Program-made: the position numbers and the translations under genes | Shown here: positions 6,351 through 50,941 of the stretch, one piece after another | Layout of the letters: the number at the start of each line of letters is the position of its first letter | Position numbering within the stretch: position 1 is the stretch's first letter | Sequence record: NC_022968.1 | DNA: 64,000 nt | Reading direction: 5' to 3' (one strand) | Origin: Escherichia phage 4MG | Notes under the pieces: generated by a model | Seen by the model: the letters and a program-made list of their open reading frames with translations, nothing else | Databases searched by the model: none | Told to the model about the DNA's origin: nothing

Positions 6351-6631
6351 TGGCTGGAAAGAATACCGTCCGTCTTGTTGAATTCAAAATCAGCGAACGG
6401 GAGAAGGCAGATATCGAAGCTGAACTGGCTGATCTACTGGACGAGGGTTTCACCATTGCATCACAGCACGAAGCTGATGGGTATTTGAACTACACCCTGG
6501 TGCGAACCACGCACAATATCAACATGTTGATTGGTGGTGAAACGGATCATCAAACCCGATCACCTCAGCAGAAATACAAGCTTGAGAACGGCGCTGTTGT
6601 TCCTGTAAACAGCGGTAATGTTCTTCATTGA
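6350..6631 (+). CDS. hypothetical protein
   Basis: ATG at 6350 (MAGKNTV...) inside track ORF 6323..6631. Confidence 0.5.
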   Translation: MAGKNTVRLVEFKISEREKADIEAELADLLDEGFTIASQHEADGYLNYTLVRTTHNINMLIGGETDHQTRSPQQKYKLENGAVVPVNSGNVLH

Positions 6632-6641
6632 TGGAGGTTGA

Positions 6642-7334
6642 TTGACAAAGAAGATCATAATTCTTTATGATTACACCTCGGTAATGGCACAGCCCTGGTT
6701 AAGGGCTGGCTATGAAGTCTGGACTTTTGATGGTCAACATTCCCCCGGCATTCACCGAGAGGGTAACCTGGTTAAGGTTGGTATGTGGTTCTTCCACGAC
6801 AAAACCAACGAGCAGGCATCAGAGATCGCAGAGATGGTTGGTGAAGGTGTTCACCTCGTCTTTGGCTTCCCAGAGTGTACTCACCTAACCAATGCAGGTT
6901 CAAGACATTGGGCTAAAAAACGCGCCGCTAACCCAAACTTCCAGAAGGAAGCAATGGAGTTATGCCTGCTTGTAGAGAAATTGGGTAATGAATGCGGCGT
7001 TCCTTGGGCTTTTGAGAACCCAGTAGGTGTTCTTTCCTCGATGTATCGCAAACCAGATTACATGTTTGATCCAAAGGATTACGGCGGGTATCTTCCTCCC
7101 GATGACGTACACCCTTTATATCCGCATGTATACCCTCCACAGGACGCGTACAACAAGAAGACATGCATTTGGATGGGTAATGGTGCAAAACAGCCTACAA
7201 AGCTTCCTGTGAAGGAATTGCACAAAGATAATCCCGGATGGAGAAAGTGTGGTGGCAAGTCTATCCAGACTAAAAACATCCGTAGCTGTACGCCTCGTGG
7301 TTTCGCAGAGGCTTTCTATCAAGAAAATAAGTAG
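6642..7334 (+). CDS. DNA cytosine-5 methyltransferase-like protein lacking the glycine-rich AdoMet motif I
   Basis: 230 aa; TTG start after GGAGG; motif IV-like FGFPEC (PC Cys), motif VI-like FENPVG (ENV), C-terminal TPRGF (TPRE..GFP-like); no FxGxGG. Confidence 0.45.
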   Translation: MTKKIIILYDYTSVMAQPWLRAGYEVWTFDGQHSPGIHREGNLVKVGMWFFHDKTNEQASEIAEMVGEGVHLVFGFPECTHLTNAGSRHWAKKRAANPNFQKEAMELCLLVEKLGNECGVPWAFENPVGVLSSMYRKPDYMFDPKDYGGYLPPDDVHPLYPHVYPPQDAYNKKTCIWMGNGAKQPTKLPVKELHKDNPGWRKCGGKSIQTKNIRSCTPRGFAEAFYQENK

Positions 7335-7342
7335 GAGGGTAG

Positions 7343-7489
7343 TTGAAAAATGTACAAATCCTTCAGTGCCGTGACATCAAGGATCTTGAAGATCGGCTGA
7401 ATGCCTATTTTGAAAAGGGTTACCACATTAGTGGTGGGATCACCGTTGACGGTAATTGGTATGTTGCTGTTGTAGTTAAGCCATTCTAA
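7343..7489 (+). CDS. small hypothetical protein (48 aa)
   Basis: TTG start 4 nt after GGAGGG; fills gap between flanking genes; below ORF-track size cutoff. Confidence 0.3.
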   Translation: MKNVQILQCRDIKDLEDRLNAYFEKGYHISGGITVDGNWYVAVVVKPF

Positions 7490-21650: not shown

Positions 21651-23354
21651 TTATGGAGCGTTTACCGACAGATAAGAACTATCATCTGCTGTCACAGTCT
21701 GTAGGGCTGCTGTAGCATGGATACGTGTTCCACCGTCAGCCACTGCCGTAATAAGTCCTGTGGAGCTTACTGTGGCGACAGTCGGGTCTTCACTTGAGAA
21801 GGTGATTGAGTAGCCGTCAAGGTTCTCTACACCCGCTGGTGTGACAGTGTATACCAATTGCTTGGTCTCACCAACAGTCATTGCAGAGAGACTATCTGTA
21901 GCCATTCCCATCGTAGAGGCATAACCACCAGAGGTATCTGTCAGAGTTGTTGCACTAGTCCCTGTCTTCGCCGTCATGGTGATATCAAATCCACCTTCCG
22001 CAACGAACGTCATTAATCCGTTAGCATCAACAGTTGCAAACTCTGGGTGACTTGAGCTAAACTGTAGGTCATAGATTTCAGCCCCAGGTGGGTCGATAGA
22101 CCACGTAAGCTGTTTCGTAGCACCAACAATCGCAACACCGATAGCGCCTGTCGTGATGGAATCTGCACGGATACCTTCGAAGGAATTCTCAGGAACGTTT
22201 GTGAAGTTACCAACCACAGTCGTTGATCCGAAAAATCCTTTAGGGTTACCAGTGTAGAACAGGTTACCATCGTAGACCATCCAATGCCCCAGTGTACCAC
22301 CCTGAGCCATGTTGTCTCCTTTTATCTCAGCAACAAAGGTCAGCTTACTCAGGTCCCAATCGGCCCCCGTAGGTACAGGGATGATGGTTGGCACAGTTAC
22401 AGCAGTGGTGGTGTTACCCAGTCCAAGGTTTCTCTGTGAATCACCGAGGGCATATAGAACACCATCAGCGATGAAGAATCTTGATTGTCCACCATCAAGA
22501 ACACGGAAAGTCGTAAAAGGACCGAACGTAGTAACTTTTGTATAGGCCCCGTTACTTGTTGTAATGCCACGGGTGTAAAGATAATGGTCGGTATCTGAAG
22601 CACCAGTAGAGGCGATTGCAATCGTGTTGTCTTCGTTGCACATCCACTCTTTTGCGTAGATGGTCCCGGTAGCCCCTGGGAATGTTACGCTGGCGAAGCT
22701 GGTGATTGGTGTAAATGACCCGTTAATACCGTAAGTAGAACCACATACACGAGGAACACCAACGTTGTTAAGATAGGTCACACAAGCATTCAGGCCAAAC
22801 GCACGGACACAGGAAGAACTAATTGTTCGCGGGATAGAGATCGGGTTTGAGTTTCCTGATCCCAGACATCCGTTTGCATTAGATCCGCTGCCATAAAGAG
22901 TTCCGTTGTTCATGACCCACAATGCGTTACCACCACCACCAACCACACTGACAAGGTTTGCCAGGTTAACAGTGCCAGTAATTGAAGATGGAAAACTGGT
23001 CCATGCCATCATGTTAGCCGTTGTACCTGTGAACTGACCTTGGTCACCCGCATATTGCCAGCCACCGCTATTATATTTTACAACAAAAGCCTTCCCAACA
23101 CCAAAAACATCTGCTACATTACTTGCAGCAAGCTTCCAGTGATCGTAAAATGGGCTGGTTGTTCCATCTGCACATTCACCCCAAGCGTTATCACCTTGGG
23201 TGTATAGTCTTCCGTCAGACAGCAGGATAGCCATAGATCTTTTAACACCTGTGGTCTGCTCTCTTGTGAAGGCAATCTTTTTTACCCCGCCTGGTGGCAG
23301 AGGTGTTGTCCCACCACCCGCCATTAGCAGGAAGAGACTTGGGATAGGAAACAT
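21651..23354 (-). CDS. fiber/virion protein with RCC1-like repeats and two Big_2-like Ig domains
   Basis: 567 aa; repeated LYxxGxNxxGxLG motifs; C-terminal Ig-like segments; AGGAGG SD. Confidence 0.55.
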   Translation of the reverse strand: MFPIPSLFLLMAGGGTTPLPPGGVKKIAFTREQTTGVKRSMAILLSDGRLYTQGDNAWGECADGTTSPFYDHWKLAASNVADVFGVGKAFVVKYNSGGWQYAGDQGQFTGTTANMMAWTSFPSSITGTVNLANLVSVVGGGGNALWVMNNGTLYGSGSNANGCLGSGNSNPISIPRTISSSCVRAFGLNACVTYLNNVGVPRVCGSTYGINGSFTPITSFASVTFPGATGTIYAKEWMCNEDNTIAIASTGASDTDHYLYTRGITTSNGAYTKVTTFGPFTTFRVLDGGQSRFFIADGVLYALGDSQRNLGLGNTTTAVTVPTIIPVPTGADWDLSKLTFVAEIKGDNMAQGGTLGHWMVYDGNLFYTGNPKGFFGSTTVVGNFTNVPENSFEGIRADSITTGAIGVAIVGATKQLTWSIDPPGAEIYDLQFSSSHPEFATVDANGLMTFVAEGGFDITMTAKTGTSATTLTDTSGGYASTMGMATDSLSAMTVGETKQLVYTVTPAGVENLDGYSITFSSEDPTVATVSSTGLITAVADGGTRIHATAALQTVTADDSSYLSVNAP

Positions 23355-23398: not shown

Positions 23399-25198
23399 TT
23401 ACGGACGACGAACAATAACGGTGTCGATCACACCATCTTCAACGCCATTATAGGTTAGCTGAAGGATGGTTACAGAACCCGCAGTCTGATTGATTGTCTC
23501 GCTGTTGAGAACCAGATAGTTAGGGTCCAGTGTGACAGTATGACCTCCGGTGGCATCCTGAGTCAGATAAATCATCGCAGAGAATGCGTTTGGTGGAGAA
23601 GGCCATGCACCGATTGTCAGGTTAGCATCAACCAGCACAGTGTAGATGTTGGATGTACCACTCGGTGTCCAGTTAGCCGTTGAGCTTTCTACATCTTCCG
23701 CAACAAGAGTCAGGAATCCAACACGAGCATTAGGAAGGTCTGCGGTATCTTGTACCGTCAGAGTAGCAGCCGTAACAGATCCTGTAGCTGTCAGAGAAGC
23801 AACGCTAACAGATTGTCCGGTAAGGTCAACTGTCAGTCCAGTTACAGTCCCTTGGATAACAAGGTTATTAACCGTAGTTGTTCCAGACCCGTTATTCAGG
23901 GTCACATCCCCGGTAGCAGACAGGTTACCAGTGATTGCTACATCGCCAGTTACGTTAAGGCCTGAAAGAAGCTCTGTTGAACCAGTTACAGACAGATTAC
24001 CACCGATTGCGCCATTAGCAGAACCTGTAGTGAAACCGCCGTTAAGGTTGCTCAGACCACCAACAGTGAAAGGTCCTGTGATTGTACCACTTGAGGCAGT
24101 GAAGTCAACAAGGGTTGTTGACCCATCTACCTTCAGGGTGTTAATCACCTCAAGACTTGAAAATGTGGTGTTGCCGAGAGTAGCAGAACCGTTAACAACC
24201 AGGTCAGAACCAACAGTTACACCTGCGGTAGTCGTAACAGAGTTAGGCAGAATGTCAAGGCCATTAACACTGAAGCTCAAACCAGTCACAGAACCTGTGA
24301 TATGGAGGTTCTCAACCTCTGTCATTCCTGATACTTTCAGACGCGGAGCGGAGATATCCTTCGCGTTATTACCACGGATATACACATAATCGAAGACGTT
24401 GTTACCAACACCTGTCAGAGACATTGTTGTGTCATCAGCAGCAACTGTGCCGTTGACAATAATGTCTGTTTGCAGGTTGTGGGTCTGGATCGCATAAGGA
24501 TCAAGACGGGTCTTGAAGAATGTTGGGTTTCCTGCATCTGTATAGACGAAAGTAAGGCTTGAAGCCTGCTTAGTCAAAATCAGGTTTTGGAAACGTCCGG
24601 TGGAGTTGTCTGCGTTGACCGGGCCGTTAAGAGTGGTTGTACCATTCACAGTCAAGTTGTTCAGTGTCGTTGCACCAGAAACAGTTACGTTCGCAAAGGT
24701 AACACTACCACCAGAGATACTGGACAAAGCATTTGCAATCGCAGTCGTAACGAAAGCGGTTGTTGCAATTGTCGTACTGTTGCTGTTTGCAGCAGGTGTT
24801 GGGGCCTGCGGGTTACCTGTCAGGATTGGGCTGTTGATTGGAGCATAGATGGATGCCATCGCCGCTGCATCATTGTACAGTCTCCAGTTGACGCTGGTAG
24901 ATGGGTTTGCTGGGAGAGTTACAGGAGCAGTTGCCGTTGCACCCGGAGCATACCACCACTGAACACCATTGGTGCCATTAAATGCGTAAAGCTGGTTAAA
25001 GACCGTCGCTTGAGACCCGGCTACCCAGGGAATAGGCGGTGTCTTGAAAAATAAGTTGTCCAGAAGTGCTTTACGAACTGTTGGGATGGTGCTACCATCT
25101 TCAGTAACAACAGTTTCAGAAGCAGTACCGTTGACAACTTTGTGCAGGCGTTCAGAGTCTTCGATGACCTGATCAACAGCCTGTTCAAATTGAGTCAT
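23399..25198 (-). CDS. tail fiber protein
   Basis: Thr/Ser/Gly/Asn-rich beta-type repeats (NLTVNGTTTLNG...); start ambiguous (ATG 25198 vs GTG 25243). Confidence 0.55.
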   Translation of the reverse strand: MTQFEQAVDQVIEDSERLHKVVNGTASETVVTEDGSTIPTVRKALLDNLFFKTPPIPWVAGSQATVFNQLYAFNGTNGVQWWYAPGATATAPVTLPANPSTSVNWRLYNDAAAMASIYAPINSPILTGNPQAPTPAANSNSTTIATTAFVTTAIANALSSISGGSVTFANVTVSGATTLNNLTVNGTTTLNGPVNADNSTGRFQNLILTKQASSLTFVYTDAGNPTFFKTRLDPYAIQTHNLQTDIIVNGTVAADDTTMSLTGVGNNVFDYVYIRGNNAKDISAPRLKVSGMTEVENLHITGSVTGLSFSVNGLDILPNSVTTTAGVTVGSDLVVNGSATLGNTTFSSLEVINTLKVDGSTTLVDFTASSGTITGPFTVGGLSNLNGGFTTGSANGAIGGNLSVTGSTELLSGLNVTGDVAITGNLSATGDVTLNNGSGTTTVNNLVIQGTVTGLTVDLTGQSVSVASLTATGSVTAATLTVQDTADLPNARVGFLTLVAEDVESSTANWTPSGTSNIYTVLVDANLTIGAWPSPPNAFSAMIYLTQDATGGHTVTLDPNYLVLNSETINQTAGSVTILQLTYNGVEDGVIDTVIVRRP

Positions 25199-25217
25199 AT
25201 CTGCCACAAGAGTCTCC

Positions 25218-25487
25218 TTATTGGTCTGACTTTTGCTCTTCACGTTGGGCTTCTGTTACGCCCCAACGAAGAGAGATGAGTTTACTGATAAGTTGCGGTG
25301 CAGCAACAGTGGGTGCATATACCCACATATACCACTCTGTCAACGTGCCTTTGAATCCCCAATAGAGGAATACTGCGGTCATAGATGCCAGGCCGATATT
25401 GCTCCAGAACTTTGTGTGTGAAGCCTTCTCAGGATCAACTGGTGATCTAACGAGGTCCTTCAAAAATTTCATTATTGATTTTAACAT
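25218..25487 (-). CDS. small membrane protein
   Basis: 89 aa, one hydrophobic helix; GAGG SD. Confidence 0.4.
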   Translation of the reverse strand: MLKSIMKFLKDLVRSPVDPEKASHTKFWSNIGLASMTAVFLYWGFKGTLTEWYMWVYAPTVAAPQLISKLISLRWGVTEAQREEQKSDQ

Positions 25488-30084: not shown

Positions 30085-30163
30085 GAACGCCTCCTCTTGC
30101 TAGATTTTTGCTCTAAGATGTTGCTATTTTATCATATTGTGATTTAATTATAAAGGCTTATAA

Positions 30164-30185
30164 TGAGAAAAGGGGCCGAAGCCCC
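30164..30185 (-). terminator. rho-independent terminator after tailspike gene
   Basis: Minus-strand GGGGC-UUCG-GCCCC followed by UUUUCUC. Confidence 0.6.
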
Positions 30186-30192
30186 TTGTTAT

Positions 30193-32331
30193 TTAAGTCC
30201 TTTCGCTGTATACTACCGGGTTTGTGGAAACAAGCGCCGTGTTATCTGGTGTTGCTGTCTGGATAGGATCAGCAATATCGAGATAGAATGGTGTTGTCCA
30301 GGCACCGTTTTGGTACGGAGCGCGGATGACCGTTGTCTTCAGGTCAGCGCCTCCAGCACCTGCTCCTGGGATTGTCAGTTGGAGACCTGCGGATTTAAAC
30401 GCACGAGTCGCCCAAGGTTGACTTACTCCAGAATCGGCTGCACACTGAATCGTTTTTGAACCAACCGTGGTTGCACGGATAAAGTCATTAGGTTCAATGT
30501 AAGACCCACCAGTCTCGACCACAAATAGCCCACCAGTCTTTTTCAAGATGATGTCACCTTTAACAAACTCTTTACCTTGTGGGAAAAGATCGTTATCAGC
30601 GATGTAGATGTTCCCGGCGTTGAGAAGAGTTACACCACGGTTACCATTTGTCTTGGAGTGTTGAACCACATCAAAGTTACAACCGTAAGTCGTAACATGA
30701 TCAAACCCTACCTGTCCAAAACTACCGTTGGCAACACCGTTTGCATCGAGGCTGTTGATATTCAGAATCTCAGCAGAACACCAAGCCCAGCGTTTCATAG
30801 CCCCGCCTGCTTCACCCTGCCCCGCTTCGTAGTCACCGATACCGTCAAACTTGTTACAACGGATATCTGCAAGACGAAGACGGGAAACAAGGCCACGGTA
30901 TTTGAAGGTGTCGCATTCAACATCTTCAACCGTCACAGTGTTTGTCCAATCATCTCTGGCGCTTACAGGAATGTCCACCAGTCCAGTGTGAGTTCTGACG
31001 TTTCTCAACGTAAAGTCACGACATGGAGCAGCATATGCCCCTGCGTTCACACCCCAGCCGAAATAGATGAAACGAGTAGCCCCGTTGACCATTTCACCAC
31101 GAACACCATCAACGATATAGTCCTTACACCCGTAGCAAACAACACCACCAGATGCCAGAAGTGTGCCGTTAGAAACGGAAGCGTCAGGGTAGACCTCTAC
31201 GTTCTCTACCTTGAAATCTCGGCAAAGTTCGAAGTGGATACACTGACGTACACGTCGCGCCTTGACGTTACGAATGATGATCCCACTGACGTACTGGTCA
31301 TCGGAAGCGTTAGCACCGTATGGACCCTGACCCGCAACACCGATACCGATACCCCAGTTAGGAGAGTTGTCTGTGTTGTTGATGTTGTCAATGTTGATAT
31401 CTTCGATGGTCAAACCACCTGCTTTGTAGTGTCGGTTAACAACGTTACACTCAATCGCATCGCCTGTCAAATCATTGAAGTTCAGTCGAGCAAAACGAGC
31501 ACGGGTGATCAGAGCACCAGTACCTTGTTGCAGGATACCGTACTTACAACCACGGAAATCACTATCAAGGATGTCGATTGTACCATCAATAGGTAGAGCT
31601 TGGATCAGCATGGCTGCTGTATTGGTGTTATTTACCCACGCAGAATCAGTTATGATTAGCCGTCCACCGTAGTGTCGAGTACAAACCCCGGTAAAGGTAG
31701 TCCAACGGAATGTACTGTTTGACAGGTACATGTAGCGGTTGCCACCTGATTGGTTGAATGCACCACCATACCACTCTACGCCGTCGATGTAAACACTTGT
31801 TTCTAGAGTCAGTTCCCAGCCCCATGCCAGCACAGCTTTTTTATTCGCTTTTGCATAAGCCACCATCGCGGTCACTGCTTCGGTTGTTGTTGGGTATTTA
31901 CCAACAAACTGTGATGGTGTAATAAATCCATCGAGGGATTGTGCAACCGTCCCAGCAGGACCACCTACGTAAGTTGACCCATTAATCCCAGCAAGGTCTC
32001 CACGGAGAGAAGGGTCATTAACAGACCATCCCCCTGCACCAACACCCCCGGTGCTCTCCGGGGTTGAGTTGGCAGGAACCAGCTTAGGATAAGAACCCGT
32101 CCACTGGTACACCTTGTTAGTTGTGCGGTCAATTACCTGGTCCTTAGCGGAGGTCAGCGTACCACCATCCTGGAATGAGAACATACGCATGACACCGAAA
32201 CGAGAGAACAGGCTGGACCAAGTGGATTTGCGTGTAGCATCCGACTGGTCAACAACCAAGAAATCACCCTCGAAAGAATCCGTCGCGGTCGGAAGGTCCG
32301 AAATTTTGACGGTAGGTAATAGATCTGCCAT
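30193..32331 (-). CDS. tailspike protein (beta-helix type, putative depolymerase)
   Basis: 712 aa; N-terminus MADLLPTVKISDLPTA...DQSDATRK shared with gene 35130..35804; Gly/Asn/Val-rich repetitive body. Confidence 0.55.
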   Translation of the reverse strand: MADLLPTVKISDLPTATDSFEGDFLVVDQSDATRKSTWSSLFSRFGVMRMFSFQDGGTLTSAKDQVIDRTTNKVYQWTGSYPKLVPANSTPESTGGVGAGGWSVNDPSLRGDLAGINGSTYVGGPAGTVAQSLDGFITPSQFVGKYPTTTEAVTAMVAYAKANKKAVLAWGWELTLETSVYIDGVEWYGGAFNQSGGNRYMYLSNSTFRWTTFTGVCTRHYGGRLIITDSAWVNNTNTAAMLIQALPIDGTIDILDSDFRGCKYGILQQGTGALITRARFARLNFNDLTGDAIECNVVNRHYKAGGLTIEDINIDNINNTDNSPNWGIGIGVAGQGPYGANASDDQYVSGIIIRNVKARRVRQCIHFELCRDFKVENVEVYPDASVSNGTLLASGGVVCYGCKDYIVDGVRGEMVNGATRFIYFGWGVNAGAYAAPCRDFTLRNVRTHTGLVDIPVSARDDWTNTVTVEDVECDTFKYRGLVSRLRLADIRCNKFDGIGDYEAGQGEAGGAMKRWAWCSAEILNINSLDANGVANGSFGQVGFDHVTTYGCNFDVVQHSKTNGNRGVTLLNAGNIYIADNDLFPQGKEFVKGDIILKKTGGLFVVETGGSYIEPNDFIRATTVGSKTIQCAADSGVSQPWATRAFKSAGLQLTIPGAGAGGADLKTTVIRAPYQNGAWTTPFYLDIADPIQTATPDNTALVSTNPVVYSERT

Positions 32332-32340
32332 TAATTCCTC

Positions 32341-35130
32341 TTATCTTGTAAGGTTTCTGTACATAGCATACAGCCCAAATCCTCGTAACAGTTCTCCGGC
32401 GTGGAAGCCAAAGAACATCCCGTTATCAGTATCTGCACGAGGAGCAACAGACCAGCTACCGTTCATCGGATGATTGGCAGTCAGAATGATGTAGTTCTCC
32501 TGGATCAGACTGAAACAACGCTCTGCCACAATGTCGATGTTAGGAATACGAGTACGCATCCCAGCCATACCAAGGATGGAACAACCACCCATGAACAGCG
32601 CCGACATATGGCTTGTAAAGTCATCCTCTGGTGCCAGAACAGTACCATCCGGGTTAAAGATGGTTGGTGTACGGCCCTCGTTGTTATCCTGGAACCATTT
32701 CAGATAGTCAACCCAGTTCTTAGCCACTGTAAACAGCTTGCTAGGAATGGCTTCTCCACGTTGAGAGAGTTCATAGATACAACGACAAACACAGAAGAAC
32801 GCACGAGCCTCATATCCGTCCCAAGCCTTCTCGTTCCAGTGTTTCATGGTGAAGGTATTTGGTTCCCCGTACTTACGGGCATCCCAGCGATCCCAGACAA
32901 AGGCCTGAGCCATTGGTCCTGGCATAATAGGATGGAATGTGTTATAGAACCACATCTGGGAGTCATACAGGAAATCAATAGTGCTGTTCAATCTTGTCCA
33001 GTCAATGTTTTGACCTTTGAAGCAATACAGCGTAGGATATTGATACCCTGGGTATGGAAGACCACGCCAACCATCATAGAGCGCCGTGTTAGGGTCACTG
33101 ATGTTGGAGAACGGGATCAGTCCCGGAGTGTAGTACAGGCTGTTAAGTTTGTAGTCGATAATTGTACAATCACCAAGCTTCGCATTGTATGCATTATCAC
33201 CAGAAACCGTGATACGGAAGTACATGGTATAGTCGTCACCACCAGTGGAGGTGTACAACTCTGGGACAGCATTGATACAATACCAGTCGATCTTCGCACT
33301 AACACCGTCAACAGGGTCTGTGTCTGGTGCCAAGTTAATCTGTTTAAGATTATGGAGACTGATTTGGTTAGGCTTAGGATCTGTTTCTGGATGGTCTGGT
33401 TGGTAGCTGCTCAGAACGAAGTTGGAAGGACTCAACTGAAGTGTTGTCCATTCTCCGTTGGTTGCAGGAACCATAGCCCACCATCTCCACAGATTGTCAT
33501 CGGTGATTGTGATGTTAAAATTGTCAGCATAGGAACGGTATGTGAATGCTGAAAGGTCAGCAGTTTCAGTATCTGTCAGCCAGAAACCGATTGTGCAACC
33601 ACCATCCGCATCGGTCACAAGCGTACATGCTTGGTCATTGATTCGCCCAAGAATACCAGTCTGGTACTGGAAGTCAATAACTGTGTTTGATCCCCAATCT
33701 ACAACGATACGTGGATCAGCTACAATGTAGCTACCACCACCGGGAGGTGTTAATCTCACAAAGTTGGACAGAGGGATATCCATAGAAACGATGGAGTCTG
33801 TACCGCGTGGAAGGCCACAACGATAGGTCACCCTACCAGTTTCTGATTTGGTCTTGTTAAGGTCTAGTTCTGGTCTGAACAACAACCCATTCCCTGCTTC
33901 ATCCTTTCCTGAGAACTGGACACGCAGTTTTGAAGTGCCGTCAACACGGAACCAAATAGCCTGCTGTTCAAGAGTTGTCTGTGCTGCCACGTTCTGACGA
34001 ATACCAATATATCCTTCTGCGTCACGAGAATACTGTGGAACGGCTGTTGAAGGATAGGAGTAGTCATAGCTGATCCCATCAGTGAACGGGATTGTAGCGA
34101 ACGTAGATTTACGGAAGAACTTATCGAAACGGTCAATGTCTGAATAGTTATCACAAACAATTAATGAAGACTGCCAGCAAAGCCAGTATTTTCTTTCCCC
34201 GGTGATCTGATACATAACATAGTTCGCATCACACCACCATGTTTCTGCGTCAGAAGCATTGTCCTGGAAACCCATTTCAATCGGTACGTTAACAGGTCGG
34301 TTGTGCCACATGGTGTTTCTACCCATCAGGTATCCACCGTGTTCAACAGGATTACAGGTCGCATAGTTGAACTTGTAATTTCCTGTGATTGTGGTATTCT
34401 TTAACTGAACTGTACCCCATTCAGCCTCAGGGAACCCTTCAGCGAGGATATTACCATCCCAGTCAACCTTACGACCAAGACGATCAATGATCCAGTCAAC
34501 ATCCCACTGAGAGCCATACTCATCCCAGTTGGTGCTTCCGTCAGGGTTCTCTTTGTAGACTGTTGCGTTAACAGAGTTCCAACCAAGGTTTCCGTCGAAG
34601 GCAAACCAAGCCTTGTCCAGATATTCCCCCCAGTGAGGCGCTCCGTGCGGGATCAACGTTTTACCATTTGTCCACGTCATAACGCTACCCTTGAAACCAC
34701 CGTGGGTTGGGTATCCATCATCTGTCAATGGGTAGTGGGCGAGGCGTGGCTCTTTTCCGTTAATGATCCAGTTAGGACGATAAACAGCAGGAGGATCTGG
34801 GATTGGCTGACCAGCAAAGAACCAGTCAATATATGCCTGCCAGTATGCCTCTGCAAGTTCCAAGTATTTTGGATCGTTGGATGCCAGGTAAGCATAAGCG
34901 CACCCAAGGATCAGCACTGACTGACCCTCGGTAGTTGCGTCACCATTCGGTTGAGCTTCCTGTGCTGTCCAGTTGATGAAGTGGCGGTTGTTAGCCAAAA
35001 CATTTTGCAAGTTCAGAATGTAGTGCTGAACCGTAGGATCGATTGTCTCTCCGGTGTTTCTCTGAAGAAACTGAATGTGTCCGTCGATCAACTGAAACAC
35101 ATTATCAATGTTGTGGCTTAACTTTGCCAT
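32341..35130 (-). CDS. large tail-associated protein, possible glycoside hydrolase/lyase-like enzyme
   Basis: 929 aa; Trp/Tyr/Asp-rich, alpha-helical-looking N- and C-terminal regions; located between two receptor-binding protein genes. Confidence 0.45.
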   Translation of the reverse strand: MAKLSHNIDNVFQLIDGHIQFLQRNTGETIDPTVQHYILNLQNVLANNRHFINWTAQEAQPNGDATTEGQSVLILGCAYAYLASNDPKYLELAEAYWQAYIDWFFAGQPIPDPPAVYRPNWIINGKEPRLAHYPLTDDGYPTHGGFKGSVMTWTNGKTLIPHGAPHWGEYLDKAWFAFDGNLGWNSVNATVYKENPDGSTNWDEYGSQWDVDWIIDRLGRKVDWDGNILAEGFPEAEWGTVQLKNTTITGNYKFNYATCNPVEHGGYLMGRNTMWHNRPVNVPIEMGFQDNASDAETWWCDANYVMYQITGERKYWLCWQSSLIVCDNYSDIDRFDKFFRKSTFATIPFTDGISYDYSYPSTAVPQYSRDAEGYIGIRQNVAAQTTLEQQAIWFRVDGTSKLRVQFSGKDEAGNGLLFRPELDLNKTKSETGRVTYRCGLPRGTDSIVSMDIPLSNFVRLTPPGGGSYIVADPRIVVDWGSNTVIDFQYQTGILGRINDQACTLVTDADGGCTIGFWLTDTETADLSAFTYRSYADNFNITITDDNLWRWWAMVPATNGEWTTLQLSPSNFVLSSYQPDHPETDPKPNQISLHNLKQINLAPDTDPVDGVSAKIDWYCINAVPELYTSTGGDDYTMYFRITVSGDNAYNAKLGDCTIIDYKLNSLYYTPGLIPFSNISDPNTALYDGWRGLPYPGYQYPTLYCFKGQNIDWTRLNSTIDFLYDSQMWFYNTFHPIMPGPMAQAFVWDRWDARKYGEPNTFTMKHWNEKAWDGYEARAFFCVCRCIYELSQRGEAIPSKLFTVAKNWVDYLKWFQDNNEGRTPTIFNPDGTVLAPEDDFTSHMSALFMGGCSILGMAGMRTRIPNIDIVAERCFSLIQENYIILTANHPMNGSWSVAPRADTDNGMFFGFHAGELLRGFGLYAMYRNLTR

Positions 35131-35804
35131 TACTCAACTCCTGCCATAATGAGGGAGCCGAACCATGTGTTCCCTCCGTCATAAGTGACGAACTGGAAGA
35201 TGTCTCGTACCCCGGTTTTATATGAAAGAACTGGTTCTCGTCCATAGTTCCACTTGATGTTGCTAGGCCATGAAACAAGGTTGGCCCCTGTCCCCTGAGT
35301 TAAAGATAACTGGAAGGTTTGGGAAATTCCCTGAGCGGTAGATGGGTTGGTGATACCGACCACACACTGCCCTGATGTCAGGTTAGCAAGGAAGGTATCT
35401 CCAAGTGTCAGGTTGCAGGTTGCAGTCCCCTGGACGTTACCCAGATTAACAACCTTACCTGTAGAACTTCCACCACCGCTTGCACCAAACTCCTGCCAAG
35501 CGTTAGAACTGATACCCCCGGTTGTCGCCGGGGATGAAGACATTGGAATTGTCTTTGGATAAGTACCGTTCCATGTGTAATATTTACCATCAGTTGCGAA
35601 GAAGGCGAGATCCTTTTTGGATTCAAGATATCCTCCCTCAGCAAAGAAAACCACTCTTGTCAAGCTCATCTTGGAAACGATTGTGTCCAAAGAGGCCTTT
35701 CTGGTAGTATCTGACTGATCAGTAACAACAAAATCGCCACCTGCAACGGTGACGGCAGTTGGAAGGTCAGAGACCTTCACTGTTGGAAATGCAACATCTG
35801 CCAT
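35130..35804 (-). CDS. tail fiber/tailspike protein with shared N-terminal anchor domain
   Basis: 224 aa; N-terminus MADVAFPTVKVSDLPTA...DQSDTTRK paralogous to gene 30193..32331. Confidence 0.5.
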   Translation of the reverse strand: MADVAFPTVKVSDLPTAVTVAGGDFVVTDQSDTTRKASLDTIVSKMSLTRVVFFAEGGYLESKKDLAFFATDGKYYTWNGTYPKTIPMSSSPATTGGISSNAWQEFGASGGGSSTGKVVNLGNVQGTATCNLTLGDTFLANLTSGQCVVGITNPSTAQGISQTFQLSLTQGTGANLVSWPSNIKWNYGREPVLSYKTGVRDIFQFVTYDGGNTWFGSLIMAGVE

Positions 35805-48313: not shown

Positions 48314-50941
48314 TTAGTTGACAGTAAGAGAGGTTGTACCTGTCAGGTTTGTACCATCCCAAAGGATCGTAACAACTGTGCGGGTAGTTCCCAAAGTAAC
48401 CGCCGTACCGTTTGACCATGCTAAGTTTCCAGGCCACGTCAGTGACGCACCAGAACCTGTGAACACGATAACGATTGTCATTGCCCTGTTTGCAGGCAAA
48501 TTAGTAAAGCTCATGGTTTTGTTCGCTGTACCATCAACCTTGAAGACCTGAGACACGCTAACATCCATAGCTCCAGTTGAAGAAGTTACCAGAAGGTCGT
48601 AACGATCCAGTTTCTTCCATGCACTGTTTACACGAACGTAATAGCCGCTGTCAGCAGGGGCTTCAAGAACTGGCACATCTACCCAACCAGAACTTGTACG
48701 CGCCTGTGGCGTTGTTGAGGAGGTATCGTAGACGTTACCACCACCCATGTATCCCAGAGAAGCCCATACCGTAGCAGAAGTCTTCTGGAAATACTCAAGG
48801 GTGCTTTTGTTGATGAAGTAGTCACCAACACGTCCATCAGCAGGCCCTGGGTTACGTGGGAAGTTCAACCAAAGCGTACCTTGGTCACCTTTCACACCCT
48901 GGATACCCTGAGTACCTTGTGGACCCTGAGGTCCAGTTGGTCCAGCAGGCCCCGTAGGTCCTACGAATCCACCAACGTTGATCCAGTCATTGTCTGTTAC
49001 ACTCCAAACCCACAGGTCTGTTCCGATGATCCAGCCGTCACCTTCAGTACCTGTTGCTGGTAGATCAGCTTCAGATGCTTTGGTTCCTAGAGGTTTAATA
49101 CCAGCGCCCTGGTCTCCTTTAGGTCCTTGTGGGCCTGTTGGTCCGGTAGGACCTGCATCACCCTTCGGACCCTGTGGTCCATCAACACCTTGGAGTCCTT
49201 GGATACCCTGGTCTCCCTGAGGTCCTCGCATTACACCCAAGTTGGCCCAGTCAGAACCTGTAAAGGCAAAGCCCTCCCCGGTATCTACTGTGGTGTAATA
49301 ATCCCCATGAGATGCCCCAACCGGAAGGTCTGCTTCTGTTGGTACTGTTCCAAGAGGGTTAAGCGGAACACCCATTGGACCCTCAGGCCCTTGAGCACCA
49401 TCAGCACCAGCAGGCCCTGTATCTCCGGTGTCACCTTTAGGACCCTGAGGTCCATCAACACCTTGTGGACCCTGTGGGCCTGTAGGCCCGGTATCACCAG
49501 TGTCACCTTTATCGCCCTTCGGACCTACATATGGACCAACGTTGATCCACTGTGCATCAGATTGACTCCAGACATACAGGTTTGGTACAATGATCCAAGC
49601 ATCACCAGATGTTCCTGTCGCAGGAAGTTCAGATGTGGCACCTTTCGTACCGAGAACGCGAGCACTGTAACCTGTTTCACCACGGTCGCCCTTCGGACCT
49701 ACTGGTCCTTGAGGTCCAACTGGTCCGGTAAGGCCCGTGTCGCCCTTATCTCCTTTCGGACCTACGGGTCCCTGGATACCCTGTGCGCCGTCATTTCCCT
49801 GAGGACCCTGAGGTCCTGTTGGTCCGGTTGGACCTTGATCGCCTTTCTGTCCCTGTGGACCCTGAGGACCAACGTCACCATCGTCGCCTTTTGGCCCCTG
49901 AACAGGACCGATATCTTCCCATGCACCGTCAGAAGTCCACACCCAAACATGATTATCTGTTTGAACAACCCAAGCATCAGCAACGGCGTTGCCGAAAGCA
50001 GGAAGATCTGCGGTGGTGGCTTTTGTACCTTTCAGTTTAACAATGGCGGCATCGTTACCTTTATCGCCCTTCGGACCCTGAGGTCCTTGTGCGCCAGTAA
50101 GCCCTTGGATACCTTGAACACCCTGATCGCCTTTCTCACCACGATCACCTTTGTCACCTTTAGGTCCTTGTGGCCCTGTGGCACCAGTCGCACCCTGAGG
50201 CCCTGTTGGACCTACCTGACCAACTGGTTGCCAACCGTCAGCAGCGCCAGTCCATACCCACATCTGTTCTTGGACGATATAAGTATCACCCTCAGTGTTT
50301 CCTTCTGTAGGCAGGAATGCTGTGTCTGTGAAAGAGCCTTTGATTACAAGACCGATACCGTCCTGCCCTTGTGGACCTGCGAAGTCTCCAAGGTCAACCC
50401 ATTGCTGGTTTACAACAGTCCAGTAGTGTGTTCCAATAACGTATGTGTCGCCTTCCTGCATGGTTGATGCAGGTGGGAGTTGGGAAGGGTCTCCCAGAAT
50501 ACCTTGGATGTAAATACCAACACCCGGTTCACCTTGCGGCCCCTGGTCACCCTTATCCCCCTTTTCACCAGGTGGGACATACAGCCCCTCTTCACCTGGA
50601 TCAGTAACCTCAACAAGGGTGTTTCCATCCTTACTTGAGATCGGAATAACGATTTGAGGAGGAGCAACATACAGCTTTCCACCCGCCAATACAAGCAGGT
50701 TGTCACTGATTGTGCTGACACCAACGGAAAGACCGTCAGCACCAGCCACAAGAGCATTTCCGGAAGCAGGATCTACAATAACAGTTGCCTTCAGTGGGGT
50801 AGTGGATGTACCATTACCGAGAAGTGTGACGGTGGTCGTATCTTCCGTATGGAATTGACCATCATCAACAAAGGTCTCACCTGCACCGCCCTCAGGAAGG
50901 ATCAGTTCAGCGTTGACGACCTTATCATTGTAATCTGCCAT
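48314..50941 (-). CDS. collagen-like (Gly-X-Y repeat) fiber protein
   Basis: 875 aa; multiple uninterrupted GXY blocks (e.g. [28 protein letters not shown]); AAGGGG SD. Confidence 0.65.

Follow-up and report, generated by a model that had tools for sequence, protein, structure and literature searches.

A putative adaptor with a conserved glycoside-hydrolase-like partner, and a phi92 gp150-type tailspike on a paralogous anchor, in the lateral tail-fibre locus of Escherichia phage 4MG

In the Vequintavirinae, much of the fibre locus is conserved and probably targets conserved glycans, and the assignment of genes to lateral fibres was described as unclear in the BASEL study (PMC8594841). The receptor assigned in this group so far is the NGR glycan, which is bound through the gp142 deacetylase fibre (bioRxiv 10.64898/2026.04.02.716166). 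For phage phi92, two reports state that gp150 cuts the β-1,4 linkage between glucose and fucose in colanic acid (PMC13450770, citing Xu et al. 2025; PMC11126041), and gp141 appears as a 'glycosidase' in the list of Schwarzer et al. 2012, cited via PMC5380687. In the record of phage PVP-SE1, gp49 is labelled a "putative fusion protein", with an N-terminus like rV5 gp43 and a C-terminus like a colanic-acid-degrading protein. In our study, a stretch of 64,000 nucleotides from Escherichia phage 4MG (NC_022968.1; hereafter the window) was analysed, and the three open reading frames (ORFs) at positions 30,193 to 35,804 were compared with these systems. We regard it as fairly probable that they encode two glycan-directed side appendages, one consisting of an adaptor with a 929-amino-acid (aa) unit and the other of a colanic-acid tailspike. 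The three genes are given below.

35130..35804, minus strand: 224-aa protein, read here as an adaptor; orthologue of PVP-SE1 gp51, rV5 gp43 and phi92 gp140 (ORF; phrog_7760)
32341..35130, minus strand: 929-aa conserved glycoside-hydrolase-like fibre protein; orthologue of PVP-SE1 gp50, rV5 gp42 and phi92 gp141
30193..32331, minus strand: 712-aa putative colanic-acid-degrading tailspike; orthologue of PVP-SE1 gp49 (ORF; phrog_6117; PDB 6E0V)

These ORFs are consecutive on the minus strand in the ORF listing, where a first-pass annotation made from the letters alone had also placed them, and they are likewise orthologues of GAP31 gp221-223. The 5.6-kb region has 88% nucleotide identity at 100% coverage to Enterobacter phage EC152, Cronobacter phage GAP31 and Escherichia phage LNA4, and 80-82% identity to PVP-SE1-like Salmonella phages; SSE121 is also among the 100%-coverage matches at 80-88%. 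The three genes, their order and their overlaps are all the same in PVP-SE1 gp49-gp51 and GAP31 gp221-gp223 (80-88% nucleotide identity across the 5.6 kb), the flanking genes are syntenic with both phages, and these loci differ from the present one only by about species-level sequence divergence. By homology, and by the gene order between the sheath-initiator-like and the Baseplate_J wedge genes, this is the Seunavirus (Vequintavirinae) lateral tail-fibre locus, and it is an ordinary orthologue of the annotated loci of PVP-SE1 and GAP31. Since PVP-SE1 gp49 is already labelled a fusion, the shared-anchor signature is known annotation, and the gp49-type fusion of anchor and colanidase is already known from the same record. 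No functional study of the three Seunavirus fibre proteins was found in our literature search.

Outside Seunavirus, an orthologous pair of adaptor and 929-family genes stands directly after the sheath-initiator gene in phi92 (gp140-gp141) and in rV5 (gp43-gp42). The phi92 gp140 protein has 157 aa and is without the Tail_spike_N domain, unlike the 224-aa protein, and in phi92 the pair is followed by the gp142 deacetylase (the NGR glycan-binding fibre) and the gp143 endosialidase, both of which are absent at the 4MG locus. The catalytic region of phi92 gp150 (PDB 6E0V/6E0W) is homologous over ~600 residues to the 712-aa protein; the phi92-like gp150 has a ~200-aa N-terminus related to a 614-aa fibre protein of the window, whereas the tailspike of the window has the anchor and Tail_spike_N instead. 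A virion-attached protein carrying a separately encoded enzyme is also the logic of K1-5/SP6 gp37, CBA120 TSP1-4 and G7C gp66/gp63.1, and, as here, the tailspikes of such adaptor and branched systems exchange short modules at their N-termini. CBA120 TSP1/3/4 and G7C gp63.1 moreover have Tail_spike_N in common with the 224-aa and 712-aa proteins. On the other hand, the putative docking element here is a ~105-aa β-sandwich without a solved homologue and the predicted cargo is an α/α barrel, against a β-helix in the K1-5, CBA120 and G7C systems, and no T4 gp10-like branching domain (CBA120 TSP2/4, KP32 type) was detected in Pfam and PHROG scans of the three proteins.

The N-terminal part common to the two flanking proteins, and the C-terminal part of the smaller one, were delimited as follows (HMM, hidden Markov model).

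35661..35804, minus strand: anchor peptide of the 224-aa adaptor (aa 1-48), from BLASTP and the anchor HMM; disordered in the monomer model
35484..35654, minus strand: Tail_spike_N of the 224-aa adaptor (aa ~51-107), from Pfam and from Foldseek/phmmer matches to the N-domains of G7C gp63.1 and CBA120 TSP1/3/4
35133..35453, minus strand: C-terminal β-sandwich 'partner' domain of the adaptor (aa ~118-224; hereafter the C-domain), motif QGTGANxVxWPxNIKW..GRxPVLSY
32023..32331, minus strand: anchor (aa 1-48) and Tail_spike_N (aa 51-103) of the 712-aa tailspike, paralogous to the adaptor N-terminus

The first-pass annotation had proposed that both proteins begin with related N-termini and then diverge, as exchangeable modules on a common adaptor would. 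Residues 1-103 of the 224-aa protein and 1-102 of the 712-aa protein indeed align significantly, with 48 identities in 103 positions (47%, E 4e-28), and no further significant segment was found by BLASTP beyond them. Tail_spike_N (PF18668) is matched at about residues 51-107 with 44.7 bits in the 224-aa and 57.8 bits in the 712-aa protein, both above the Pfam gathering cut-off of 25 bits, and in Foldseek this segment matched 4qnl, 4oj5 and 5w6h. No other carrier of the anchor N-terminus was found in the window, either by tblastn of its whole length or by HMM search of all ORFs; matches of the anchor HMM (residues 1-48) were limited to these two genes and to gp045 and gp043 of the rV5-like phage V18. 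In V18, gp043 is the fibre gene downstream of the 929-family gene, and it shares the same anchor with gp045. In the phi92-like gp150 orthologue (EmilieFrey bas61_0033), similarity to the 712-aa protein starts only at residue 208, and the first ~114 residues resemble the N-terminus of the 614-aa fibre protein of the window. The different N-termini on the colanidase domain, together with the anchor pair in V18, show that module swapping on these anchors is real and recurrent: one anchor bears different C-termini in 4MG, and the colanidase domain stands on another N-terminus in phi92-like phages. The proposal of exchangeable modules is thus borne out. A shared-anchor arrangement occurs again in another subfamily, in Erwinia phage phiEa21-4, where gp70 and gp71 (L009:5101-6609 and 6619-7353) have their first ~160 residues in common at 31% identity.

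The main evidence on the 224-aa protein comes from its C-domain. In the structural model, residues 1-48 are disordered and are followed by Tail_spike_N and then by a β-sandwich at 118-224; Foldseek against the PDB matched the Tail_spike_N part only, and no solved homologue of the C-domain was found. The C-domain gene was found directly 5' of a 929-family gene in 11 loci examined from distinct lineages, at 33-50% identity and with the genes often overlapping. These include the phi92-like EmilieFrey, the rV5-like V18, Rosemountvirus BP63, Kolesnikvirus phiEa21-4, the jumbo phage Asesino, Vibrio and Aeromonas Autographiviridae, a Pseudomonas P2/HP1-like prophage and a Spongiibacter prophage, and the most conserved motif of the domain is unchanged from E. 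coli phages to Vibrio, Pseudomonas and marine prophages. In a database-wide search, 526 phage records were matched by the C-domain and 532 by the 929 family, with adjacent coordinates and near-identical counts per genus, the genus being taken as the first word of the organism name.

Escherichia: C-domain in 238 records, 929 family in 241 records
Salmonella: C-domain in 100 records, 929 family in 103 records
Vibrio: C-domain in 60 records, 929 family in 62 records
Erwinia: C-domain in 33 records, 929 family in 33 records

Among these records, 23 named 'Campylobacter phage' (e.g. A150 and C15; 135-146 kb) carry the pair at the identity seen in E. coli phi92-like and rV5-like phages, and 'Acinetobacter phage' ABPW7 belongs to Phapecoctavirus; in both cases the host label looks doubtful.

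The part in front of the C-domain varies with the type of virion. Podoviral proteins have a Pfam Phage_T7_tail domain at this place, BP63 a coiled coil, phi92-like phages a short anchor, and 4MG the anchor with Tail_spike_N. In the two T7-like loci inspected, the pair sits at the gp17 tail-fibre position and is the sole one seen there. No fusion of the C-domain to a 929-family protein was present among 120 homologues, and one P2-like prophage lacks the small gene, its 929-family protein being joined directly to a gpI baseplate domain. At the level of the genes, coupling, co-occurrence and the podoviral T7-domain fusion were observed, so far in keeping with adaptor-plus-tailspike fibres of the K1-5/SP6 gp37 type. 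Because the C-domain gene lies just upstream of the 929-family gene, the record counts nearly match and the N-terminus changes with the virion type, the best reading of these sequences is that the 224-aa protein is an adaptor tethering the 929-aa protein to the baseplate, and that the tailspike took a copy of the same tether.

The first-pass annotation had instead counted the 224-aa and 712-aa proteins as two receptor-binding proteins and expected two or three distinct specificities. Taken to its full extent, that explanation would have both as independent, exchangeable receptor-binding proteins and the 929-aa protein as a third depolymerase. The common N-termini with unrelated C-termini are in its favour, as are the hydrolase-like fold of the 929-aa protein and the PHROG label of the 224-aa family (phrog_7760, 'tail fiber protein', E 3e-112). 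It is nevertheless quite improbable in our estimate, since the C-domain is small, its gene precedes a 929-family gene in the 11 loci whatever the host, the two are recorded in near-equal numbers, the C-domain motif is invariant across distant hosts, unlike host-specific receptor-binding tips, and the stop and start codons of the 224-aa and 929-aa genes overlap. The 712-aa protein stands as a depolymerase-type tailspike, being a homologue of 6E0V, whereas the 224-aa protein is probably not an independent receptor binder. With an adaptor in place of a separate binder, two appendages and two glycan activities are expected and not three; two enzyme-like activities are counted here, and the 929 family is too conserved for a typical variable depolymerase.

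For the 929-aa protein, an enzyme-like nature had been suggested from its composition, and both that composition (3.9% Trp, 5.6% Tyr and 7.6% Asp) and the helical ends were recovered. The AlphaFold2 model built from a 45-sequence alignment (pLDDT 89.4, pTM 0.84) gave a predicted (α/α)6-barrel, glycoside-hydrolase-like fold with inserts resembling carbohydrate-binding modules (CBMs), which supports the suggestion. Barrel helices are placed at 7-24, 67-104, 293-330 and 699-926, and two large β regions at 122-290 and 337-680. The segments are as follows.

34768..35130, minus strand: barrel segment 1 (aa 1-121), with D64 and E68 in 'GDATTEGQS' invariant; helices 7-24, 67-84 and 87-104
34270..34767, minus strand: β-sandwich insertion 1 (aa 122-287); DSSP strands 122-276
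34123..34269, minus strand: barrel segment 2 (aa 288-336), with D294 and E296 in 'NASDAE' invariant; helices 293-310 and 313-330
33064..34122, minus strand: β-sandwich insertions 2 (aa 337-689), CBM-like jelly rolls by Foldseek
32344..33063, minus strand: barrel segment 3 (aa 690-929); helices 711-732, 772-790, 797-815, 840-855, 865-878 and 909-926

The best fold match of the model was CPF_2247 (3ren), with a score of 31.2 and 326 of 332 residues aligned, followed by GH76, GH105, GH88, GH8 and cellobiose 2-epimerases (22-27) and by a non-enzyme, the SSV19 tail protein VP4 (20). The β parts matched CBM11 (1v0a, prob 1.0, TMt 0.57), tandem CBM22 and an agarase CBM in Foldseek, and phrog_23426 matches residues 478-624. 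The predicted (α/α)6 barrel is that of GH8 and clan GH-M (BcsZ, CelA) and of CPF_2247, and it is split by ~520 residues of β-sandwich inserts, unlike the GH8 barrels. At 35-46% overall identity, E68, D294 and E296 do not change in any of the 45 aligned sequences or in the 12 lineages compared, nor do many aromatic residues, and R748, R776 and E913 are also invariant in the family. Each of the motifs 'GDATTE68GQS' and 'NASD294AE296' begins a barrel helix, and 'TTEGQS' and 'ASDAE' are collinear with 'TSEGQS' (Glu55) and 'ASDGD' at the barrel-helix starts of BcsZ, with no significant sequence relationship between the proteins. In BcsZ, a GH8 enzyme, Glu55 serves as the catalytic acid. Based on the model, the 929-aa protein is glycoside-hydrolase-like by fold and possibly has a GH8-like mechanism. 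Membership of GH8 itself (PF01270) is not established by these data, no significant sequence or profile match having been obtained.

The 929 family is strongly conserved. The 98% identity to the GAP31 counterpart is followed by full-length identities of 43-58% within a set of homologues in which prophage proteins of Enterobacter, Pseudomonas and marine Gammaproteobacteria are represented, and by 32-46% in rV5-like phages, Rosemountvirus, Kolesnikvirus, jumbo phages, large Vibrio phages and T7-like podoviruses. No hypervariable region was found in the family, and insertion 1 is its best-conserved part (mean 52% identity across lineages). In an exhaustive search of 1.84 billion representative proteins (50%-clustered), 185 matches were obtained, 71 of them at E ≤ 1e-30, and no stand-alone cellular enzyme was recognisable among the relatives. 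As judged from these alignments, the family is far too conserved across hosts for a typical variable, host-specific depolymerase, and this conservation suggests that its target is a broadly conserved envelope or matrix glycan and not a variable capsule.

Several other architectures were observed in the family (L014:6001-9294; L015:6001-10863; P0056; P0060), such as the N-terminal fusion to a P2 gpI baseplate domain (1097 aa) and C-terminal extensions that carry a glycine-rich domain (1425-1620 aa proteins). In Stenotrophomonas phage Philippe, residues ~462-609 are duplicated internally in a protein of 1083 aa. Residues 451-623 of the 929-aa protein have a homologous counterpart in phiEa21-4 gp70, in its C-terminal part (aa 301-464; E 2e-18), and this β-sandwich is therefore a mobile module.

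The catalytic region of the 712-aa protein was located by phmmer.

30208..31995, minus strand: gp150-type catalytic region of the 712-aa tailspike (aa 113-708), by phmmer to 6e0v_A

Residues 113-708 align with 30-620 of 6e0v_A (phi92 gp150; E 2.2e-111), which covers the full length of the gp150 catalytic region, and the protein is 37% identical to residues 208-798 of the phi92-like bas61_0033. It also belongs to phrog_6117, 'colanic acid degradation' (E 9e-295). A match to WcaM (TIGR04004) is confined to residues 260-448; at 93.9 bits against a cut-off of 794.6, the protein is not a WcaM equivalog and only a related domain is indicated. By homology, the 712-aa protein appears to be a phi92 gp150-type tailspike that would hydrolyse colanic acid, the activity having been reported for phi92 gp150.

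Taken together, the two proposed appendages may work as follows. The first ~48 residues and Tail_spike_N of the 224-aa protein would fix the adaptor to the baseplate periphery, and its C-terminal β-sandwich would hold the product of the next, translationally coupled gene. The 929-aa protein would be the distal unit, in which CBM-like β-sandwiches are inserted into a split (α/α)6 barrel of glycoside-hydrolase type; it is probably a glycanase with a GH8-like acid pair (E68; D294/E296), which would bind or cut not a variable capsule but an envelope or matrix glycan that is broadly conserved. The 712-aa protein is predicted to be a trimeric β-helix tailspike, and as it carries a paralogous anchor and Tail_spike_N it would dock on the same kind of site as the adaptor. 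Its gp150-type domain would depolymerise colanic acid, by which the phage may reach the surface of mucoid hosts.

A number of points weigh against this explanation. Searches of Pfam, NCBIfam and the PDB (phmmer and profile) with the 929-aa sequence were empty, and in Pfam no match was obtained even at E 10 with the full-length or the barrel-only sequence. The family was compared with BcsZ and 19 BcsZ orthologues by hhalign in three forms (the alignment of 45 sequences, the same limited to the barrel, and one of 28 more diverse sequences), and the probabilities of 0.1-1.9% are not significant. Lenient hhalign with the 45- and 28-sequence alignments sets TTE68GQS on TSE55GQS and ASD294AE296 on SASD116GD of BcsZ, again not significantly, and with probabilities of 2% or less the correspondence of these motifs is suggestive only. 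No conserved counterpart of the GH8 catalytic base was found in the family, where D750 varies and most members have Gln at position 774, and the most divergent relatives are without E68 and D294. In the phi92 cryo-EM study (2026), fibre III is assigned to gp147, fibre I is inferred from gp143 and fibre II is unassigned, and its text contains no mention of gp141 (PMC13450770). Further, some 929-family homologues are extended at the C-terminus by 500-700 aa; the protein may accordingly be a platform and not the distal tip.

The last point leads to an explanation without catalysis, in which the 929-aa protein is a structural arm or platform in the lateral fibre complex; its α/α toroid and β-sandwiches would serve only as scaffold or lectin, and other fibres would attach to it. 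We hold this to be unlikely, as E68, D294 and E296 at the positions of the GH8 motifs do not vary at 35-46% identity, nor do many aromatic residues, the top fold matches are without exception active glycosidases or epimerases, and the 929-family protein with its adaptor is the sole occupant of the tail-fibre position in the two T7-like loci.

Two further points concern the adaptor. At one locus (L015), a 107-aa protein consists of the C-domain alone, without an anchor, which the adaptor role leaves unexplained. In Microcystis phage Mel-JY34 (L016:4512-6148), a 267-aa 'tail fiber' protein ends in the C-domain (HMM E 2e-24) and is followed by a 288-aa glycine-rich protein that is not a member of the 929 family; a strict one-to-one pairing of C-domain and 929 family is therefore ruled out as an absolute rule. 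In this the 288-aa protein is reminiscent of the long 929-family forms, whose C-terminal extension is also glycine-rich. The existence of the 107-aa version would suit a C-domain that acts as an assembly factor or cap for the 929-aa protein, which would then attach to the virion otherwise, and tight gene coupling is also typical of chaperone-client pairs. This appears very improbable to us, because proven modules of virion attachment precede the C-domain in the same protein (the N-domain of the T7 tail fibre in one case, the anchor with Tail_spike_N of a bona fide tailspike in the other) and S144 gp16 is a virion protein; in that phage the homologues gp16 and gp17 were both identified in the virion by mass spectrometry (PMC7432712).

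Returning to the adaptor with its 929-aa cargo, a wider reading can be put forward tentatively, with somewhat less than even confidence. The C-domain and the 929 family may form a portable two-gene fibre cassette, possibly corresponding to the unassigned proximal arm or fibre II density of phi92. Because the enzyme-like unit is 35-58% identical across hosts, its target would be an envelope or matrix glycan that is broadly conserved, and not variable capsule or O-antigen. Such a cassette would be distributed over myoviruses, T7-like podoviruses and prophages of Enterobacteria, Vibrio, Aeromonas, Pseudomonas and marine Gammaproteobacteria.

The surroundings of the three genes were also analysed. 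The stop codon of the 224-aa gene overlaps the start codon of the 929-aa gene in TAATG, 9 nt separate the 929-aa stop from the 712-aa start, and two signals follow.

30170..30187, minus strand: intrinsic-terminator-like hairpin, GC-rich with a T-run, AAGGGGCTTCGGCCCCTT then TTCTCATTAT, 5 nt past the 712-aa stop
30154-30126, minus strand: promoter-like site TTTATA-17-TAAAAT with an upstream TG, 5' of the Baseplate_J wedge gene

Given the overlap and close spacing, the hairpin after the 712-aa gene and the promoter-like site before the wedge gene, the three genes are the end of a baseplate/fibre transcription unit, which starts upstream with the tape measure, hub, spike and sheath-initiator-like baseplate genes. 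The terminator-like hairpin and promoter-like site at 30126-30187 therefore indicate that the fibre and wedge genes may be separate transcription units inside the structural module.

Three other fibre-like genes of the window were recorded.

23399-25243, minus strand: 614-aa fibre protein
48314-50941, minus strand: 875-aa collagen-repeat protein (Pfam Collagen, E 9e-41)
21651-23354, minus strand: 567-aa tail protein with RCC1-like β-propeller repeats and two Big_2 Ig-like domains

Residues 17-123 of the 614-aa protein are 50% identical to the N-terminus of the phi92-like gp150 orthologue (L003:23246-25660), and its C-terminus (aa 510-613) matches that of the phi92 gp151-like collagen fibre; it represents a second anchor type and a further case of module shuffling between genera. 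In the 875-aa protein, residues 787-851 match the adaptor C-domain HMM weakly (E 3e-4), and the C-terminal stretch is 39% identical over 59 aa to V18 gp045, as is likewise seen for the GAP31 orthologue. The last 170 aa of the 567-aa protein share 55% identity with the N-terminus of a phi92-like lateral fibre protein of 942 aa.

The window itself is of little weight, since its fibre locus is the orthologue of annotated ones and its tailspike family has a solved structure and a reported activity. The parts of interest are the adaptor cassette and the substrate of its highly conserved 929-aa cargo; no description of the pairing of C-domain and 929 family was found in the literature searched, and as far as that search shows, the pairing and its substrate seem not to have been described previously. 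Vequintavirinae and phi92-like phages are therapy candidates, and the anchor and adaptor modules could be handles for fibre engineering. The conserved adaptor and glycoside-hydrolase-like pair provides a concrete, testable assignment for lateral fibre genes, and it points to a widespread putative virion glycanase.

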